Assembly (NCBI GenBank): GCA_003056265.1 | Contig: NBVN01000004.1 | Span: 150,001 to 182,000 of the forward strand | Length of the DNA stretch: 32,000 nucleotides | Direction: 5' to 3' | Source: Zestosphaera tikiterensis | GTDB lineage: Archaea > Thermoproteota > Thermoprotei_A > Sulfolobales > NBVN01 | Shown: positions 5,053-14,525 of the stretch, one piece after another | Layout: the number at the start of each line of letters is the position of its first letter | Position numbering within the stretch: position 1 is the first letter of the stretch | Notes under the pieces: model-generated | Seen by the model: the letters and a program-made list of their open reading frames with translations, nothing else | Databases searched by the model: none | What the model was told of the DNA's origin: nothing | Translations under genes and position numbers: made by a program

Positions 5053-5295
5053 TTAAACAACTACAGGTATCTTCGCCTTCCTCAACAACTCCCTAAAGTC
5101 TTCTAAATCAAGTCCGGAGAAGTACGCTGCCCTCCTGATGTCTCCCGTCTCTATATAGTATTTTAAAGCCGCTTTAATTTTAGGGGGTTGCTTCTCTATG
5201 AAATCCCAATCAGCATGCTCCTTTCTAATTCTTCTAGCCTCCTCCTCTAACTCAACCCACTTTTTCTTTTTCATTGTTACCTCATCTTCACCCAC
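5053..5295 (-). CDS. UPF0175-like small antitoxin-type protein (copy 1)
   Basis: The C-terminal segment ALKYYIETGDIRRAAYFSGLDLEDFRELLRKAKIPV matches the UPF0175 pattern (...G.is.g.AA.laG.s...F..ll...gIp). The start overlaps the PIN-like stop by 8 nt (GTGGGTGA). An alternative ATG lies at 5274. Confidence 0.6.
   Translation of the reverse strand: MGEDEVTMKKKKWVELEEEARRIRKEHADWDFIEKQPPKIKAALKYYIETGDIRRAAYFSGLDLEDFRELLRKAKIPVVV
5147..5215. repeat. 69-bp perfect direct repeat, copy 1 (inside UPF0175-like gene 1)
   Basis: gtctctatatagtattttaaagccgctttaattttagggggttgcttctctatgaaatcccaatcagca is identical to 5929-5997. The flanking bases differ on both sides. Confidence 0.95.
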
Positions 5296-5845
5296 AGATC
5301 CTCCCCTTAATTAATTCTAATGCGTTTGTTAAATCTCTCCTAGGGAAGAAATGCCGAGTATCTTCTTCGTAGGCTTTAAATAATGTGTTTAACTCATTAC
5401 AACTTACTTTAAACATACCTTCGATGACGGCAGCCGTCAAGATCTCAAGAGCTCTCCAAACTACGACGTCTTTATAAGGAGTTATGAAGTCTACAGCCAT
5501 TATAGCCCCTCTATTTTCCGTTAAGACGACATACCCTCTCCTCCTACCTATGACTAAGCATAAAGCTTCAGGAAGGTCCACAGGGATTAAACTTCTAAGC
5601 TTTCTTGACTCTTCAGTAAGTTTCCTAGCTTCCTCAAGCTCTTCTGAAGTTTCCGTGTAGATGGACATATTACCTGAAGCTAGAGCTGAAGCAACCCACT
5701 CTACGGTTCTTTCAGATTTAATCTCTTTTAAAACTGATTCACTCACATATACAATATTAAATAACTTAAACATTAAGTCTCTATATCTGAAGCGAGCCCA
5801 ATCAATTATAAAGCAGGTGTCGGCTATAGCGAACCTAACAGACAT
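5288..5845 (-). CDS. PIN-like (DUF3368/COG2405-type) predicted nuclease/toxin
   Basis: 185-aa ORF. It has an N-terminal acidic-residue strand (IADTCFIID), a central PEALCLV segment, and LTENRGA in the position of the family DDxxAR motif. It is flanked on both sides by UPF0175-like ORFs with overlapping start and stop codons. Confidence 0.55.
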   Translation of the reverse strand: MSVRFAIADTCFIIDWARFRYRDLMFKLFNIVYVSESVLKEIKSERTVEWVASALASGNMSIYTETSEELEEARKLTEESRKLRSLIPVDLPEALCLVIGRRRGYVVLTENRGAIMAVDFITPYKDVVVWRALEILTAAVIEGMFKVSCNELNTLFKAYEEDTRHFFPRRDLTNALELIKGRICG

Positions 5846-6065
5846 TAGGTATCTTAGCCCTCACTCTAAGCTCGTTAAACTCATCAACAGTTAAACCAGC
5901 TATTCTTGAAGCCACGTACATATCGCCAGTCTCTATATAGTATTTTAAAGCCGCTTTAATTTTAGGGGGTTGCTTCTCTATGAAATCCCAATCAGCACAC
6001 TCCCTTCTAACCCTCTTAGCTTCATCGACATCCTCACGAGAAACCTTAGCCCTAAGGATCAACAC
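5835..6065 (-). CDS. UPF0175-like small antitoxin-type protein (copy 2)
   Basis: 76 aa. It shares the identical block ADWDFIEKQPPKIKAALKYYIETGD with copy 1. Its stop overlaps the PIN-like ATG by 11 nt. Confidence 0.6.
   Translation of the reverse strand: MLILRAKVSREDVDEAKRVRRECADWDFIEKQPPKIKAALKYYIETGDMYVASRIAGLTVDEFNELRVRAKIPNVC
5929..5997. repeat. 69-bp perfect direct repeat, copy 2 (inside UPF0175-like gene 2)
   Basis: Base-for-base identical to 5147-5215, offset 782 bp. Confidence 0.95.
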
Positions 6066-6239: not shown

Positions 6240-6433
6240 TTGGGTTACGTTAAGGTTAAAGCTAGGGTGTGGTGTTTAGAAAGCGGTGTTTCTAAGGAGG
6301 TATCCTTGCTTGCTGATATTGGAGCTATATATACTACCCTCCCAAGTAGTTTCCTAAAAGAGCTTGGTGTTAAACCAATGGACGTTAGGAAGTTTAAGTT
6401 AGCGAATAGCAGGATTGTTGAGAAGGAAGTAGG
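6240..6433 (+). pseudogene. Retropepsin-like (clan AA) small aspartyl protease, 5' fragment of an insertion-disrupted gene
   Basis: MGYVKVKARVW...VSLLADIGAIYTTLPSSFLKELGVKP...ANSRIVEKEVG matches the archaeal small aspartyl protease pattern (vDTGA..t.lP). After about 6433 the reading frame runs into unrelated element sequence and stops at 6479. Confidence 0.7.
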
Positions 6434-6464
6434 GTACGGGAGTAGTTTCTTGTTTGTAGGTTTT

Positions 6465-7481
6465 TCAAGGTCTCTGTAGGCTCCTTAATGCTCTTAGTGC
6501 CACTATGTATGCTGATGCTGTGTGAATATCTAGTCCTAGGTCTTCAGCTACTATTCGAGCAGATATTGAACTATAAAAGCTGGGTTTATTTTAATTAGTT
6601 TTTCATGAACCTTAGGAACTAACACCTCCATTTGCTGAATAAACTCTCTTAAAGCCATTTTAGTTTGCTTCCTCTTAGCAGTCTTGATTCCCTTTGGCTC
6701 CGGCCTAGAGAGCTTTTCAATAGCGTAATATCCTACTCCATGCTCTCTAGCATACTTTACTAGCCTGGCAATAGCTTCCTGCCTAATAGCTTTAGCGTTC
6801 TCTTTGAGGAAACCATGAGATGTAACCTCAGGAAAGTGTTCATTTTTAATATCCCTAATGATGCCTTTCCTATCTATTATGACCATACATACCCTACCAG
6901 GGTTAAAATCAAAACCCGCTATGTGTCCTACTATTTTAGCTTTTGTCTTCTTTCCTATGTATTTGGTGTAAAGTTCGAGAGGAACACTTACATGTATTTC
7001 AAAGCATTTGCTCTTTAAATAGATTCCTGCTCCATACGTGATGTTGGAGGCTATTAGCTCCTGTATTATGGGTATGTATTTCCTACCGAATTTAGCCTTG
7101 GCGATTATCCATCTATGCCTGCCGGATGCCGATGGAATCTTAATCTTAACAATATCTGATGAAACGAATTTTATATTCCTATTTACTTTTTTCGTCTTTG
7201 CTTCCTACCGAGAATAACTGTGGCTTTTTAAGCTTAAGATATGGTTGCTCTCTATATAGTCTAGCTCTTTTATATGCTGAGTAGGAGTACCATTTGTTAT
7301 TCAATATCCTCGATGTAAGTAGCTTGACAATTTCATTTTCTTTTACTCCTTTCCTCATTAATGAGTGAGCATACTCTACTGCATCTTTAAAATTCCTCAT
7401 AACGTATAGGAGAAGACCTCTATCTTCAGGTGAAGAAACTATGAGCCTACCTTTAATTGTTGGCTTTATTTCTTTCTCCAT
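6465..7481 (-). pseudogene. TnpB/IS605-OrfB-like RuvC-fold protein lacking the zinc-ribbon, broken by two 1-nt homopolymer frameshifts
   Basis: Three minus-strand frame segments join into a ~340-aa protein. Segment 1 is 7481-7179 (MEKEIKPTIKGRLIVSSPEDRGLLLYVMRNFKDAVEYA...). Segment 2 is ~7190-6551 (...IKIPSASGRHRWIIAKAKFG...VGHIAGFDFNPGRVCMVIIDRKG...YYAIEKL...KINPAF). Segment 3 is ~6575-6465 (YSSISARIVAEDLGLDIHTASAYIVALRALRSLQRP*). Candidate RuvC acidic residues sit in GFDFN, AIEKL and GLDIH. There are no Cys pairs between NPAF and LDIH, where TnpB normally has CxxC...CxxC. The shifts occur at an A6 run (~7185-7190) and a T4 run (~6580). Confidence 0.6.
6468..6480. repeat. Left subterminal inverted-repeat core of the element
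   Basis: AGGTCTCTGTAGG. Its reverse complement matches 7807-7819 at 12/13 positions. TGTAGG also occurs at 6454-6459. Confidence 0.7.
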
Positions 7482-7624
7482 TTCTCAACTACCATCCTAT
7501 CATTCTCCTCATCATAATAAACAATTAGCTTATCACCTTCTTTCAATCCCATCCTTTCAGCAACCTCTCTCGGTATAGTCATTCTCAGCTTAGGAAGTAC
7601 CCTATAGACACCCACTAATTCCAT
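7466..7624 (-). CDS. AbrB/SpoVT-type (looped-hinge helix) small DNA-binding protein
   Basis: My own translation gives MELVGVYRVLPKLRMTIPREVAERMGLKEGDKLIVYYDEENDRMVVEKWRKK* (52 aa). The ...MTIPREVAERMGLKEGDKL.V segment is the SpoVT/AbrB signature. It overlaps the TnpB-like ATG (7481) by 16 nt. A TATATAAA box lies ~20 nt upstream, so the transcript may be leaderless; an alternative GTG start lies at 7615. Not in the ORF track because it is under 60 aa. Confidence 0.6.
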   Translation of the reverse strand: MELVGVYRVLPKLRMTIPREVAERMGLKEGDKLIVYYDEENDRMVVEKWRKK

Positions 7625-7640
7625 AGTATCCCCAGAAACA

Positions 7641-7664
7641 TTTATATACCTCTAGATATATAAA
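7641..7664. promoter_or_regulatory. Palindromic bidirectional TATA element inside the insertion element
   Basis: The sequence is TTTATATA-CCTCTAGA-TATATAAA. The 8-bp arms are perfect inverted repeats, so a TATATAAA box faces each direction. One faces the AbrB/TnpB-like operon on the minus strand. The other faces the GC-rich segment 7687-7845 on the plus strand. Confidence 0.55.
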
Positions 7665-7686
7665 TTTAGTGGTACTCTCAACCCTG

Positions 7687-7845
7687 ATGATGAGGGCGAG
7701 GGGGATGAGCACCAAGTGAACTATGCTTCGCCAATGGCTCTGGAGAACATAGCGACCCTCTGGAGCCGTAGGCGGGGCATAGGGATGCTTAGCCGTGATG
7801 AACCGTCCTACGGAGACCTAAAAAGACCGTAGGCGAAGAACGGTT
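7687..7845 (+). ncRNA. Candidate structured RNA (R1) at the element end, reading outward toward the flank
   Basis: GC content rises sharply against the AT-rich surroundings, starting ~25 nt downstream of TATATAAA (7657-7664). Stems seen by eye are CCCT/AGGG (7682-85/7693-96), GGCGAG/UUCGCC (7695-7700/7727-7732), GGCTC/GAGCC (7737-41/7763-67) and CCGTAGG/CCTACGG (7766-72/7807-13). There is also a terminal hairpin AACCGTCCTACGG-loop-CCGTAGG(CGAAGA)ACGGTT (7801-7845) that ends exactly at the inferred element boundary. No ORF is present. Strand and ends are inferred, not shown. Confidence 0.35.
7801..7845. repeat. Right-end subterminal hairpin of the element
   Basis: AACCGT (7801-06) pairs with ACGGTT (7840-45). 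CCTACGG (7807-13) pairs with CCGTAGG (7827-33). The loop is 13 nt and there is a 6-nt bulge. CCTACGG can alternatively pair with the upstream CCGTAGG at 7766-72. Confidence 0.6.
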
Positions 7846-8008
7846 AGTAGGTATTGAAGTTATGGGGTTAAGAACACATACTGTGGTAATTTTCGGTGAT
7901 GAAGGCGTATACCTCTTGGGTGTTGTTACGTTAGAGGAGTTAGGGCTTGAAATAGATCCTATTAAAGGTGAGCTTAAGCCAGCTGAGTTATTGTTAATGA
8001 AGCTTTAA
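7846..8008 (+). pseudogene. Retropepsin-like aspartyl protease, 3' fragment
   Basis: Translation from ~7852 gives (G)IEVMGLRTHTVVIFGDEGVYLLGVVTLEELGLEIDPIKGELKPAELLLMKL*. This matches the conserved C-terminal half of the small archaeal aspartyl protease family (..viFG.eg...LLGv.tLE.LGL.vDP..g.L.p). Confidence 0.7.
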
Positions 8009-8517: not shown

Positions 8518-9270
8518 TTGGCTGAGAGTTTAGCAGTGAGTTTGGTTGAGCCTATAATTCAAGAGTATGTTAGGAGGGTTATTGAGAAAGCTAGGGCTGG
8601 TAAGAAGCTTAGCGATTGGGAGATAGGTATGTTGATGATGGATTATATGAGGATATCGTTATCGAATAGGATTAGCTCTGTTGAAAAGACTTTGTCTGTA
8701 AGGATTGACTTAATGGAGAGTAGACTTAATGGTGTTGAGGGTAGGCTTGATCGTGTTGAGTCTTCCGTTAATGACTTTAGAGAGAAGCTCACAACCTTCG
8801 ATAAGAAGTTTGGGATGATTGAATCTAGGCTTGAATCTCTTGAAGGTAGGCTTAACAGCGTTGAAGGCAGACTTAACGGTGTTGAAAACAGGCTTGATCA
8901 TGTTGAAGGCAGGCTTGACCGCATCGAGGGTAGGCTTGATCGTGTTGAGTCTTCCGTTAATGACTTTAGAGAGAAGCTCACAACCTTCGATAAGAAGTTT
9001 GGGATGATTGAATCTAGGCTTGAATCTCTTGAAGGTAGGCTTAACAGCGTTGAAGGCAGACTTAACGGTGTTGAAGGCGGCCTCAACGACTTAAGGAGTA
9101 AGTTCGACGCTTTCGATAAAAGATTTACGATTGCGGAGAGTAAACTCGTAAACGTTGAGAAAGGCGTTGAATACTTGAAAGGAAGCCTAGACTCACTAAG
9201 AGATAACGTAATAAACGTTTTAGTTGCTGAACTTAAGAGAAGAGCAGGTATAGAGTCAAAACAGCCGTAG
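8518..9270 (+). CDS. Heptad-repeat coiled-coil protein of unknown function
   Basis: 250-aa ORF. Its central part is made of xxRLxxVE heptads (ESRLNGVEGRLDRVESSVNDFREKL...). It has a non-repetitive N-terminal ~60 aa and no catalytic motif I recognise. Confidence 0.7.
   Translation: MAESLAVSLVEPIIQEYVRRVIEKARAGKKLSDWEIGMLMMDYMRISLSNRISSVEKTLSVRIDLMESRLNGVEGRLDRVESSVNDFREKLTTFDKKFGMIESRLESLEGRLNSVEGRLNGVENRLDHVEGRLDRIEGRLDRVESSVNDFREKLTTFDKKFGMIESRLESLEGRLNSVEGRLNGVEGGLNDLRSKFDAFDKRFTIAESKLVNVEKGVEYLKGSLDSLRDNVINVLVAELKRRAGIESKQP
8737..9075 (+). repeat. Perfect 150-bp duplication with a 189-bp (63-codon) period inside the coiled-coil gene
   Basis: 8737-8886 is identical to 8926-9075, checked line by line. 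The duplication is in frame and duplicates GRLDRVESSVNDFREKLTTFDKKFGMIESRLESLEGRLNSVEGRLNGVE. Confidence 0.95.
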
Positions 9271-11142: not shown

Positions 11143-11219
11143 TGGTGGGGCCGCGGGGATTTGAACCCCGGACCACGGGGACCCGAACCCCGCATTCTAC
11201 CAAGCTAAACTACGGCCCC
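11143..11219 (-). tRNA. tRNA-Pro (anticodon CGG), CCA encoded
   Basis: The minus strand reads GGGGCCG-UA-GUUUAGCUUGGUAGAAU-G-CGGGG-UUCGGGU-CCCCG-UGGUC-CGGGG-UUCAAAU-CCCCG-CGGCCCC-ACCA. It has a 7-bp acceptor stem, a 5-bp anticodon stem and a U33-CGG-G37 loop. The T arm is GGGG/UUCAAAU/CCCC. A CTTTTAA TATA-like box (rc of 11244-11250) is centred ~27 nt upstream. Confidence 0.95.
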
Positions 11220-11293: not shown

Positions 11294-12448
11294 GTGTTGA
11301 GTGAGTTAAGTGTTTTGAAGGAGTTTGTTCGTGAGTTAAGCGCTCCTTTCGTAGGTCGTGAGGAGGAAGCTGAAGTTGTTGTTCTATCTATTTTATCTAA
11401 AGAGCATGGGATTTTAATTGGCGAGCCTGGCACAGCTAAGTCCGCGATTGTTAGGAGGGCTGCGGAGCTTCTTAACGCTAAGTTCTTTAAGTACTTACTG
11501 ACTAGGTTTACGGAGCCTTCCGAGATATTCGGTCCTTTAGATATTAAGGCTTTAGAGGAGGGTAGGTATGTAAGGCTTTCCACGGGTAAGTTACCGGATG
11601 CTGAGATAGCTTTCTTAGATGAGGTTTTTAAAGCTAATTCAGCTATTTTAAACGCTTTAAACACTCTACTTCAGGAGAGGGTTTTATACGACGGCTTCAC
11701 TGAGTTAAGCGTTAACCTCTGGTCTTTATTCGGCGCTAGTAATGAAGTACCGGACGACCCTGAGGTTGAGTCCGTCTACGATAGGTTTTTAGTTAGGCAT
11801 TTCGTCAGGCCTGTATCGGAGGATTTATGGAGTGAGTTACTTAAGCGTTCTTGGGCTATCGAGAAGGAGATCTTCTTCAACGGCTCCCTCCACGCTAGGA
11901 AGTTACTCGATATGAACGATTTAAGAAAACTTCACGCGATACTTTATGAAGTTGATTTAAGCGGTGTTGAAGGTAGGTTGATGAGGTTATTCGCCGTTTT
12001 CGAGAGTAGGGGGATTCACTTAACCGATAGGCGGAAGGGCAAGTCTTTAAAACTCGTAGCAGCTAAAGCCTTACTTAACGGAAGGAGGGTTGCTTTAGAG
12101 GAGGATTTAATGGCTGTTAAGTACGTAGCCGTTAGGGATTGGGAGGACGTGGAGAAAGTCAACACGGTATTAGCTGAGGAGTTAAAAACACCTTATAAAT
12201 ACTTAAGAGATTTAAACGAGATTAAATCAAACCTAAAGGAACTTCATAACTACGTCCTCTCACTTAAAAACATAGAGAGTAGCTTCGTAGACACTAAATT
12301 TAAATCCATAGCTAGGGAGTTAGAGATAACTAGAGGTAAGGTCGTAAGCATAATGAGGGAATCTCAAGACCCTCAAGTAATTAAAGCCGGTGAGGACGTC
12401 ATAAACCTAATAAACAATATAATGGAGTTAATAACGAAGAGAAGGTGA
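11294..12448 (+). CDS. MoxR/RavA-like AAA+ ATPase
   Basis: 384-aa ORF. Walker A is GEPGTAKS and Walker B is AFLDEVFKA. It has the sensor/arginine region NALNTLLQERV and a C-terminal LTDRRKGKSLKLVAAKALLNGRRVALEEDL lid typical of the MoxR family (COG0714). Confidence 0.85.
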   Translation: MLSELSVLKEFVRELSAPFVGREEEAEVVVLSILSKEHGILIGEPGTAKSAIVRRAAELLNAKFFKYLLTRFTEPSEIFGPLDIKALEEGRYVRLSTGKLPDAEIAFLDEVFKANSAILNALNTLLQERVLYDGFTELSVNLWSLFGASNEVPDDPEVESVYDRFLVRHFVRPVSEDLWSELLKRSWAIEKEIFFNGSLHARKLLDMNDLRKLHAILYEVDLSGVEGRLMRLFAVFESRGIHLTDRRKGKSLKLVAAKALLNGRRVALEEDLMAVKYVAVRDWEDVEKVNTVLAEELKTPYKYLRDLNEIKSNLKELHNYVLSLKNIESSFVDTKFKSIARELEITRGKVVSIMRESQDPQVIKAGEDVINLINNIMELITKRR

Positions 12449-12452
12449 TTAA

Positions 12453-12968
12453 TTGAAGTTAGGACTTAACCACATACCAGAGCCGTATAAGTCAATCGTT
12501 GAGTTAGTGTTTAAAAACCTACTTAACGTTTTTAAAGATGATCTAATATCCTTCGTTATCTACGGCTCCGTAGCTAGAGGTCAGGCGAAGCCTGAAAGCG
12601 ATATAGATATGTTAATCGTAGTTAAAAACCTACCTAAGAACAGGTTTGAAAGAACTGCGTTATTTATAGAGTTAATTGAGAGGAAGGTTGAACCACTACT
12701 TCAGGAGTTGATGGACAGAGGGTATTACATAAACTTAAGCCCTATACTTAAAGAACCTGAGGAAGCTTCTAAAATAACGCCGCTCTACTTAGATATGGTT
12801 GAAGATGCTGTGATTATATACGATAAAAACAACTTCATAACTAACGTCTTACTAAGGCTTAAGAAAAGGTTAAGTGAGTTAGGAGCTGAGAGGGTTTGGA
12901 TGGGCAGGAAGTGGTTTTGGATTCTTAAGAAAGACTACAGGTTTGGTGAGGTTATAGAGATTGAATAA
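12453..12968 (+). CDS. Minimal nucleotidyltransferase (MNT/Pol-beta superfamily)
   Basis: The YGSVARGQAKPESDIDMLIV motif is the GS-x9-DxD signature. The protein is 171 aa. Its start lies 4 nt after the MoxR stop. Confidence 0.8.
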   Translation: MKLGLNHIPEPYKSIVELVFKNLLNVFKDDLISFVIYGSVARGQAKPESDIDMLIVVKNLPKNRFERTALFIELIERKVEPLLQELMDRGYYINLSPILKEPEEASKITPLYLDMVEDAVIIYDKNNFITNVLLRLKKRLSELGAERVWMGRKWFWILKKDYRFGEVIEIE

Positions 12969-13212
12969 CGTAGAGTTAGCGAAGTCAAACATTAAGCAAG
13001 CTGAGGAAGCGCTAGAATCAGGTAATTACCGTTTCTCCCTAGATAAGACCACGAAACGCTATAGTTTAAATAAAATGAAGCGGTAGGGACAAACGGTGCC
13101 TCATGAAGAACTCTACACAAGGTTGGATGCGGAGCAAGCGTTAAGTCAAGCTTTGAAGGTTTATGAGATCGTGATTAAGCTTTTTACTGGTGTAGTGAGT
13201 AATAACTCATGA
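12961..13212 (+). pseudogene. Decayed HEPN-like partner of the MNT gene
   Basis: My own translation from TTG 12961, overlapping the MNT stop, gives NNVELAKSNIKQAEEALESGNYRFSLDKTTKRYSLNKMKR*GQTVPHEELYTRLDAEQALSQALKVYEIVIKLFTGVVSNNS*. The N-terminal (..A...l..A...l..g.y) and C-terminal helices resemble HEPN. There is an in-frame TAG at 13084-13086, and the total length (~81 codons) is far short of the usual ~120-135 aa, so the central part appears deleted. Confidence 0.4.
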
Positions 13213-13238
13213 GTTGGGTTGCTTAAGGTGCGGTTTCC

Positions 13239-14525
13239 TTGAGTGTTAAGGGGGTTTTAAAAGGTGTTAATTACGGCGATCCGGTTGTTTTGTTTAGGGG
13301 TGAGAAGGTTGTTAAGCTTGCTAAGCGTTTCGGGCTTGAGGGGGATTTCCTAACTTTAGGTTTGGGTGTGGATCTTTTCTATACTTTATACCTTCCACAC
13401 CCGGTTGTGGTTGGTTTGGCTGGGGTTGATGAGGGGTTAAGCACGCATTACAGTATAGTTAAGGCTTTAGTTGATTTGGAGGAGTTGGTTGAGGTTAAGA
13501 AGCATACGATACTTGATTCTTCTTTAAGTACTTTAGCTTCAGTTTCTTTAATTCAGCACTTGATTGAGGAGCTTGAAGGTCTTAACGAGTCAGTTGATTT
13601 TAAAGATTTGGAGGGTAGGTCCGGTAAGGGTAAGTTAACTTCAGCTTTGAAGGAAGCTTTAAAGAGGGTTGGTGAGGAAGCTGAAAACATGAGGAAGTTG
13701 AAGGAGTTGATGGCTGTAGGTACGGCCCCAGGTAAGGGCAGTCACTTCGACTTAGATGAGTCTGGCGAGGATGTGATTAAGTTAGCTAGGAATGCTGACG
13801 TTAGTAAGTTGCTTGAGGTTCTTCAGATAGTTCCGGAGCTTTTTAGAAGGAGTAGGAGGAGGTTTGAAAGGTTTAGCCGTGGTGAGTTAGCTGGTTATGA
13901 CTTAGGAAGTGATTTAGAGAGGGTCGTTCCGGAGGAGCTGGTACTCCCTAGGAAGTACTTCCTCATGAAGTTTTCTGAGTCTAAACTACTCCTATATGAG
14001 AAGAGGTTGCCGAAGGCTTTAGGATCTATATACCTGCTGGTCGATAAGTCGGGGAGTATGGAGGGTGATAAGATAAGTTGGGCTAAAGCAACAGCTATAG
14101 CGTTGTTAATTAAAGCTAGGAGGGAGAGGAGGGAATTCAACATGAGGTTTTTCGATGGGTTACCGCATGATAGAGTTAAAGTATCTAAAAACGTTAAACC
14201 TACTGAATTGCTTAACCTCATTAAATACTTAGCTAGGGTGAGGAGCGGTGGGGGTACGGACATAACTAGAGCTATAGCGACCGCATGCGATGACATAACG
14301 TTAGGTGTGACGAAAAACACTTCAGACATCATAGTAGTTACGGACGGTGAAGACACACTATCTGTAAACCTACTTAAGAGGAAGTTAAGGCAGGCTAACG
14401 CAAAACTAACCTCAGTTATGATTTTAGGAGATAATAAAGACTTGAAGACGTTAAGCGAGCATTACCTCACAGTTAAAGTACTTGATGAAAACGCAATACT
14501 TAAGATAGTTGAAACACCCGATTAA
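13239..14525 (+). CDS. von Willebrand factor A (VWA) domain protein, MoxR partner
   Basis: 428-aa ORF. The C-terminal VWA domain has the MIDAS motif LLVDKSGSMEG and a downstream VVTDGED. The N-terminal ~250 aa has no motif I recognise. The classical MoxR-VWA pairing applies (COG0714 + COG2425 type). Confidence 0.8.
   Translation: MSVKGVLKGVNYGDPVVLFRGEKVVKLAKRFGLEGDFLTLGLGVDLFYTLYLPHPVVVGLAGVDEGLSTHYSIVKALVDLEELVEVKKHTILDSSLSTLASVSLIQHLIEELEGLNESVDFKDLEGRSGKGKLTSALKEALKRVGEEAENMRKLKELMAVGTAPGKGSHFDLDESGEDVIKLARNADVSKLLEVLQIVPELFRRSRRRFERFSRGELAGYDLGSDLERVVPEELVLPRKYFLMKFSESKLLLYEKRLPKALGSIYLLVDKSGSMEGDKISWAKATAIALLIKARRERREFNMRFFDGLPHDRVKVSKNVKPTELLNLIKYLARVRSGGGTDITRAIATACDDITLGVTKNTSDIIVVTDGEDTLSVNLLKRKLRQANAKLTSVMILGDNKDLKTLSEHYLTVKVLDENAILKIVETPD

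Follow-up and report, generated by a model that had tools for sequence, protein, structure and literature searches.

The omega-RNAs of known TnpB nucleases overlap the 3′ end of tnpB and are encoded on the same strand. One of the five major TnpB clades, RIIIr-4, lacks a defined guide RNA; its members have no C4 zinc finger and harbor a His in RuvC-III (Altae-Tran et al. 2023, PNAS, PMC10691335). Within this clade, an archaeal "RHH/MazE-TnpB" branch carries a small AbrB/MazE or RHH gene upstream of tnpB, was scored as nonmobile and was proposed to form a toxin–antitoxin pair in which AbrB/MazE blocks the binding of guide to target, with a possible guide RNA placed in a long 3′ untranslated region (UTR). 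Among mobile relatives, serine recombinase-dependent IS607 transposition proceeds through an identical 2-bp core without target duplication, with a (G)GG target, GG at the element end, and subterminal repeats (Chen et al. 2018, PMC6188088). L7Ae-binding kink-turn (k-turn) RNAs are linked to orphan OrfB elements of Pyrococcus and Sulfolobus, where they lie in sense at the 3′ end of the gene (PMC3124441), and the RHH protein Arc represses the promoters of IS605 elements (Moon et al. 2026, bioRxiv 10.64898/2026.09.24.754181). Here, we describe a 1409-bp element in a 32,000-nucleotide stretch of the Zestosphaera tikiterensis genome (contig NBVN01000004.1, positions 150,001 to 182,000; the window). 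We read it, with a probability of roughly 0.6, as a decayed, compact, nonautonomous archaeal TnpB element that combines an outward-facing RNA gene, an AbrB/MazE gene, and a RIIIr-4 tnpB and is mobilized in trans.

The element family and the RHH/MazE-TnpB branch alike occur in crenarchaeal and euryarchaeal hosts, lack the C4 zinc finger, and have a GLDxH motif that contains the RuvC-III His and a small AbrB/MazE or RHH gene immediately ahead of tnpB, and by these features the window protein fits this branch of RIIIr-4. The element departs from the published description in two respects. Only 31 nt separate the tnpB stop codon from the element end, whereas a conserved RNA lies upstream on the opposite strand; and the unit, in contrast to the nonmobile score of the branch, behaves as an insertion element, since it interrupts a gene, its relatives have sharp common ends in unrelated flanks, and derivatives resembling miniature inverted-repeat transposable elements (MITEs) are found. 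The AbrB–TnpB pairing and the zinc finger-less clade are already published (PMC10691335); the structured RNA appears to be previously undescribed, and what is unusual, judged from the sequence, is the geometry, in which the RNA gene is separate from and divergent to tnpB rather than embedded in its 3′ end. The features of the locus are as follows.

6240 to 6434, plus strand: 5′ part of the protease gene (open reading frame [ORF], TIGR03698 and Asp_protease_2 matches, 86 homologues and their alignment)
6435 to 7843, no strand assigned: inserted element, 1409 bp, no target duplication (reconstructed native gene; relatives with sharp ends and unrelated flanks)
6455 to 6480, plus strand: gene-side (left) subterminal region with the left repeat arm, 6459 to 6480, and YGTAGG twice in direct orientation, from 6455 and from 6475 (sequence, shuffle test)
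6465 to 7481, minus strand: tnpB-like pseudogene, 339 aa after correction, no zinc finger, frameshifts at 7187 to 7192 and 6575 to 6578 (ORFs, homologues, fold)
7466 to 7624, minus strand: abrB/mazE-type gene for a small DNA-binding protein, 52 aa, intact (Pfam and TIGR models)
7640 to 7665, no strand assigned: palindromic pair of TATA-like boxes (TTTATATA N8 TATATAAA), an inverted repeat between the RNA gene and abrB
7672 to 7843, plus strand: conserved structured RNA gene, ~170 nt, candidate omega-like guide scaffold (covariance model, covariation, fold z score)
7793 to 7843, plus strand: terminal C/D-like k-turn hairpin, CCGU-GAUGA...(hairpin)...GA-ACGG (covarying closing stem; copies diverge after it)
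7844 to 7863, plus strand: flank after the scaffold (TTAGTAGGTATTGAAGTTAT), candidate guide if there is read-through, length assumed (TnpB omega-RNA logic)
7844 to 8008, plus strand: 3′ part of the protease gene (ORF, homologue alignment)

An insertion in an aspartic protease gene

Reconstruction of the native gene from intact homologues places the element at 6435 to 7843, where, at a precise position, it interrupts the gene for a clan-AA (retropepsin-like) aspartic protease; GG(T) is common to both junctions and makes the borders ambiguous by 1 to 2 nt. The protease fragment is 100% identical to a Z. tikiterensis protein (P0165), and 11 intact homologues read E(K/R)EVG-(L/I)(V/I)G-IEV across the insertion point, so that the native uninterrupted sequence is reconstructed as GAA GTA GGG / TTA GTA GGT with the junction after GGG. 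AGTAGG is present on both sides, at 6428 to 6433 and at 7846 to 7851, and an earlier reading made from the letters of the window alone (the sequence-only reading) had proposed it as a candidate 6-bp target duplication. We rejected this proposal since the homologues read E-V-G-L-V-G here, and both copies are therefore Val-Gly codons of the host gene. The Gs that precede the element likewise form a host Gly codon, and the last protease bases, (G)GG at 6432 to 6434, are therefore target (the core) and not element. In the interrupted protease (6240 to 6434, around LADIGA), the catalytic DTG shared by at least 90% of homologues is replaced by DIG, which is consistent with decay after disruption.

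The 99 related loci come from Thermoproteota, Baldrarchaeota, Thermococci, Archaeoglobaceae, Methanosarcinales, and Bathyarchaeota. Related units are 1.35 to 1.52 kb long with sharp common ends and unrelated flanks, and several genomes hold three to four diverged copies. Many of the TnpB homologues (including those at L081, L096, and L099) lie on contigs of 1.2 to 1.4 kb, about the size of the element, as expected if a repeat breaks metagenome assemblies.

A conserved structured RNA gene at the right end

The GC-rich 170 nt at the right end, missed in the sequence-only reading, are, by comparative analysis, a conserved structured RNA gene that is antisense to and upstream of the protein genes. 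The block has a GC content of 48% (versus ~37% nearby) and is conserved more than the protein: it is 92% identical over 52 nt to its counterpart at locus L029, where the proteins are 34% identical. A covariance model matches the window at 7675 to 7846 with 127.7 bits and finds the RNA in 51 of the 63 loci with enough upstream DNA, always antisense to the gene and 186 to 290 nt before it. The alignment reveals nested helices with many compensatory changes; over 56 sequences, 93.9% of cells pair, compared with 45 to 53% when partners are slid, and both partners vary in 25 of 29 base pairs, with a covariation score of 0.58 against ≤0.10 in controls. The strand is set by near-invariant U-G pairs, which fit the plus strand only and would be A-C mismatches on the other, and the fold energy is −75.4 kcal/mol (z −5.2) on the plus strand versus −59.4 kcal/mol (z −3.0) on the minus strand. 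Rfam holds no matching family, with nothing meaningful at E ≤ 10 in 7560 to 7920 (best E 1.3).

Box C/D small RNAs (sRNAs) are 50 to 70 nt long and harbor C/D and C′/D′ boxes and 10- to 12-nt guides. The RNA described here, at ~170 nt, multihelix, and without an Rfam match, resembles them only in its terminal C/D-like k-turn. The 4-bp stem that closes this terminal hairpin covaries among subfamilies (CCGU/ACGG, GGGU/ACCC, GGGG/CCCC, GAGU/ACUC, and GGAU/AUCC), the hairpin contains the right inverted-repeat arm (7807 to 7828), and its final GG constitutes the recombination core. Among closely related copies, similarity is lost immediately 3′ of the terminal stem, and the RNA scaffold thus ends at the element border; no oligo-T terminator follows it in the window sequence. 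By analogy with the sense k-turn RNAs of orphan OrfB elements, L7Ae probably binds the terminal k-turn. A paper on L7Ae RNA immunoprecipitation sequencing does not mention transposon-linked RNAs, and one on archaeal circular omega-RNAs contains nothing on antisense or upstream RNAs.

The paired TATA-like boxes that form a palindrome between abrB and the RNA gene are kept in relatives, as the alignment of the RNA block reveals. From what is known of archaeal promoters, we infer that they would provide divergent promoters, and by analogy with Arc in IS605 elements, they are a probable operator of the small protein. Like Arc, the latter is a small element-encoded DNA-binding protein beside an element promoter; its fold is the AbrB/MazE swapped hairpin rather than RHH, and its binding to the palindrome is putative.

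The TnpB-like protein and the small upstream gene

The sequence-only reading recognized a 52-aa SpoVT/AbrB-type ORF that overlaps the large ORF at the position where a TnpA would be expected. The Pfam MazE_antitoxin model (1.1e-10) and the AbrB family model TIGR01439 (9.8e-10) agree with it, and the overlap with the start of the tnpB-like ORF is 16 nt. An AbrB/MazE gene also precedes tnpB at L001, L002, L006, L007, and L008, and across the 99 related loci the small gene ahead of tnpB is of one of three kinds, AbrB/MazE, RHH, or a further class. This third class (e.g., MPEEYVFHARISKTSHGLLCIYIPKELSEKMRHLHRREVIVRVTVPD), seen at L021, L023, L024, L031, L036, L041, L043, L045 to L048, L054, L058, and L063 to L077, has no Pfam match at E ≤ 0.01 and may represent a divergent AbrB-like fold.

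The large frame runs on the minus strand from an ATG at 7481 to a TGA stop at 6465 to 6467 and is broken twice, as had been proposed from the letters alone, by frameshifts now placed in an A6 run (7187 to 7192) and a T4 run (6575 to 6578), both as read on the minus strand. The 99 database homologues of the corrected protein (335 to 350 aa, ≤79% identical) are all uninterrupted, and the breaks are therefore likely to be either lesions specific to the window copy or homopolymer sequencing errors; set against these homologues, the two frameshifts make it probable, as first suggested, that the window copy is dead. A profile search of 1.84 billion cluster representatives retrieved 59 proteins at E ≤ 1e-30 and 450 at E ≤ 1e-10.

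The candidate RuvC acidic residues named in the sequence-only reading hold up in the family alignment: D192 (GFDFN) and E256 (IEKL) are invariant and D319 is at least 90% conserved, in a variant motif III, GLDxH, which also harbors the invariant H321; E256 aligns with the RuvC-II Glu region of Cas12f and Cas12X. The CxxC...CxxC zinc ribbon, already thought to be missing, is indeed absent, with no Cys pairs in any of 41 aligned family members and no OrfB_Zn_ribbon match in Pfam. In the one Pfam copy searched, no model, OrfB_IS605 included, gave a usable match to the large protein or four homologues; database homologues are labeled PF27229.1, a match that this Pfam copy did not return. TIGR01765 (TnpB N-terminal domain) matches at 2.8e-8 with 33.6 bits, below its cut-off of 47.25, and the family profile matches Cas12X and Cas12f chains from RuvC-II to the "nPaYsS" stretch (E 6.5e-8 to 1e-3). 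An AlphaFold model of the corrected protein (predicted local distance difference test score 88) has the overall WED-REC-RuvC fold of the TnpB/Cas12 superfamily, and its full-length Foldseek matches, the best being Cas12f 8j12_A (E 1.3e-10, template modeling [TM] score 0.61) and ISDra2 TnpB 8exa_A (E 2.6e-8, TM 0.58/0.57), bear out the initial assignment: the large protein is, on this model, a TnpB.

Junctions and mobility

The inverted ends claimed in the sequence-only reading are in part confirmed. The repeat itself is real, with 18 of 22 positions paired between 6459 to 6480 and 7807 to 7828 and a score of 28 versus 15 ± 2.6, which beats 200 of 200 shuffles; it is subterminal rather than terminal (25 and 16 nt inside the ends) and, while comparable repeats are significant at L089 and L018, those of many other relatives fall short of significance in shuffle tests. 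We thus discarded family-wide terminal inverted repeats as a candidate, the repeat being lineage-specific. It is built of YGTAGG, of which there are two direct copies on the gene side and one per strand on the other side, where they form a hairpin; as a count of sequence motifs, five YGTAGG cluster at the element ends. No hairpin was seen on reading the gene-side end.

In the subgroup of the window, all 21 junctions have GG or GGG as the last bases of the left flank, and the RNA-side end is always ...ACGG. In every subfamily, the last two bases of the left flank are also the last two of the RNA-side end (GG, CC, TC, or AC). In the window, the site read GTAGGG / TTAG before insertion and the element terminates in ...AACGG, and the junctions thus fit an IS607-type signature. 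The contrast with IS200/IS605/IS607 elements drawn in the sequence-only reading, and its hint of a new type of transposon, therefore fall away, given that the junctions follow the 2-bp core rule. A duplicated TA dinucleotide, entertained for the Sulfolobales copies, was inconsistent (three of six) and was replaced by the CC-core reading.

Also shared with IS607 (PMC6188088) are the lack of target duplication, the (G)GG target and the GG element end, and a TnpB passenger; the clustered YGTAGG motifs may likewise correspond to its short subterminal repeats, which are not true terminal inverted repeats. The window unit differs in that it has no serine-recombinase tnpA and carries tnpB inverted relative to its RNA-bearing end, and other subfamilies use CC, TC, or AC. 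With ISDra2 (IS200/IS605) and orphan-OrfB (IS1341-type) elements it shares the fold of the nuclease, an RNA scaffold that stops with its 3′ end at the border such that the flank would become the guide, tnpB-only nonautonomous copies, MITE-like derivatives, and a k-turn, which in archaeal examples binds L7Ae (PMC3124441). Members of the IS200/IS605 family encode a Y1 HUH TnpA and have subterminal hairpins at both ends; here there is no tnpA, and a hairpin is found at the RNA end only, the gene side having two direct repeats in its place. The zinc ribbon is missing, and the RNA, in place of overlapping the 3′ end of tnpB in sense, is a separate divergent gene at the other end.

The element holds only the RNA gene, abrB, and tnpB and, as was initially reported, no transposase; the 32-kb window contains no transposase gene either. 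A search of 262 neighboring ORFs for Y1 and serine TnpA gave no matches, a weak negative since the seed sequences may be inaccurate; a reading of 75 adjacent ORFs revealed only two fragments of canonical zinc-finger TnpB and no TnpA. Some elements of the family have fragments of canonical zinc-finger TnpB genes as neighbors, at most 500 nt away; different TnpB elements therefore cluster together.

Three loci contain miniature derivatives (~300 nt) without tnpB or the small gene. Those at L067 (2873 to 3161) and L046 (1769 to 2068) comprise the RNA gene and the last 43 to 88 nt of the far end, the former being 89 to 92% identical to a full copy on the same contig; at L053 (1086 to 1268), only the RNA-gene part was detected. 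These miniatures look like MITEs that carry a stand-alone guide-RNA gene and are reminiscent of repeats of MITE type, containing the 3′ end of orfB, that have been described in Acidianus hospitalis. At L026 (2600 to 2665), a truncated RNA-side end meets the k-turn hairpin that terminates a second element (...GGAAACGGTTAG) in a tail-to-tail arrangement, a junction that reads as a nested or adjacent insertion. Sharp ends in unrelated flanks and several diverged copies per genome indicate that the family is mobile or has been so in the past; the MITE-like copies favor mobilization in trans as the likeliest route, which was one of the two options offered earlier.

Proposed mechanism and alternative explanations

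The analysis establishes the family and fold of the protein, the structure and strand of the RNA, where the element begins and ends, its insertion without a duplication, and the core rule; the partnership of RNA and protein, the use of a guide, the target-adjacent motif, the promoter and repressor roles, and which transposase acts are proposals. In the mechanism that we favor, the RNA gene would be transcribed outward from the palindromic divergent promoter and end exactly at the element border, while the AbrB/MazE protein would repress that promoter, by analogy with Arc. The RNA would serve as an omega-like scaffold for TnpB. Since it ends at the border in the k-turn hairpin, a transcript that runs on past the border would gain a 3′ guide copied from the flank (here UUAGUAGGUAUUGAAG...). 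Once the element is lost, TnpB and its RNA would cut the empty site, composed of (W)GGG and flank sequence, as in TnpB homing. Movement would depend on a TnpA supplied in trans, the likeliest candidate being a serine recombinase of the IS607 type, through strand exchange at the 2-bp core (GG here). The window copy would have inserted into the protease gene in this way, with tnpB gaining its two frameshifts later.

Several points weigh against this mechanism. No TnpA of any kind was found in the window or beside the 99 related loci, to which the search extended, and copies within one genome are ~80 to 87% identical, a level that does not support recent mobility. The gene-side border of the CC, TC, and AC subfamilies was placed by eye, in a way that partly favored the core rule. 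The RNA ends and read-through are drawn from TnpB omega-RNA logic, and a divergent upstream RNA is unprecedented for TnpB, such that this RNA could have a different role. Finally, Altae-Tran et al. (PMC10691335) scored the branch as nonmobile and proposed a toxin–antitoxin role.

That proposal, a fixed module in which TnpB is the toxin, AbrB/MazE the antitoxin, and the RNA programs only the toxin, with no transposon involved, is the strongest of the alternatives, if an unlikely one. It is in print already (PMC10691335) and accounts well for two genes that overlap by 16 nt in an operon, for a small protein of an antitoxin family (MazE_antitoxin 1.1e-10), for the patchy distribution of the family, and for a window copy with a broken "toxin" gene beside an intact small gene. 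It accounts poorly for a unit that interrupts a conserved gene at a precise site, for sharp common ends in unrelated flanks and several diverged copies per genome, and for miniatures that retain only the RNA gene and the far end. In addition, the small protein is swapped for unrelated folds (AbrB, RHH, and the third class) at the same position beside a conserved palindromic promoter, which fits an Arc-like promoter repressor better than a specific antitoxin. Toxin–antitoxin and mobile-element roles are not mutually exclusive. We consider it improbable that the GC-rich block is unrelated to TnpB, either as a cis-acting DNA structure for a Y1 transposase or as an independent k-turn sRNA (C/D-like or a regulatory antisense RNA). 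The ends of IS200/IS605 elements do carry hairpins, as does the border here, a C/D-like box arrangement is present, and no Rfam match constrains the function. Those IS605-end hairpins measure 20 to 30 nt, in contrast to 170 nt of multiple helices, with long-range stems nested within one another and conserved G-U pairs that suit one strand only; furthermore, the RNA possesses a conserved TATA-like box of its own, accompanies the gene family across phyla while exceeding the protein in conservation, and has neither C′/D′ boxes nor the 50- to 70-nt size of a C/D sRNA.

Two further possibilities make the RuvC-fold protein itself the enzyme of movement. RNA-guided IS110 recombination features an identical 2-bp core, and the core found here could be seen in the same light. 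A new type of transposon with inverted ends, in which this protein, possibly with the RNA, acts as transposase or recombinase, is very improbable in our view. Neither the unit nor its vicinity offers another candidate enzyme, the unit is widespread and multicopy, and complementarity between the terminal hairpin region of the RNA and the far end, present in the window, L089, and L018, could in principle bring the ends together; against this stand the missing target duplication, the nonsignificant inverted repeat of many relatives, and a full-length fold that matches TnpB/Cas12f, a nuclease class without known strand-transfer activity. MITE-like derivatives and tnpB-only elements are usual for trans-mobilized IS605/IS607 relatives, and the GG target and GG end match a serine TnpA exactly. 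Most remote of all is a self-sufficient RNA-guided mobile unit of TnpB and divergent k-turn RNA with bridge RNA-like logic and no separate transposase. In such a unit the 3′ domain of the RNA would pair with the far end (18 of 22 complementarity), the read-through tail would pair with the target, and the TnpB-fold protein would carry out exchange at the shared 2-bp core.

Implications

For RIIIr-4, where the published guess places the guide RNA in the 3′ UTR, the conserved covarying RNA offers a concrete scaffold, a guide position, and a candidate target-adjacent motif (TAM), (W)GGG. If the trans-mobilized element proposed here is correct, an omega-RNA need not be tied to the coding sequence of tnpB, the L7Ae of the host may act as a cofactor of archaeal RNA-guided nucleases, and covariation would link the last RNA helix with the recombination core and the TAM. 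The RHH/MazE-TnpB branch would then move from a domesticated toxin–antitoxin pair back to a mobile element. The window copy itself is probably dead, and ordinary; the enzymes of the family are hyperthermophilic, at only ~340 aa, and may interest tool developers.

Other features of the window

Upstream of the protease gene, a 185-aa ORF (5288 to 5845, minus strand) with a PIN-like N terminus and no Pfam match at 1e-5 overlaps a 76-aa ORF (5835 to 6065, minus strand), and the two, which sit just upstream of that gene, may be a VapBC-like pair. Downstream, a 250-aa coiled-coil protein (8518 to 9270, plus strand; DUF7310, 8.9e-21) contains a long, near-exact internal duplication (…SVNDFREKLTTFDKKFGMIESRLESLEGRLNSVEGRLNGVE… twice). 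The sole Rfam match at gathering level in the window is a tRNA-Pro(CGG) at 11143 to 11219 on the minus strand. It is followed at 11294 to 14525 (plus strand) by genes in a row for a MoxR AAA+ ATPase (bpMoxR, 3e-62), a nucleotidyltransferase, and a VWA-domain protein, a module of the MoxR-VWA type.

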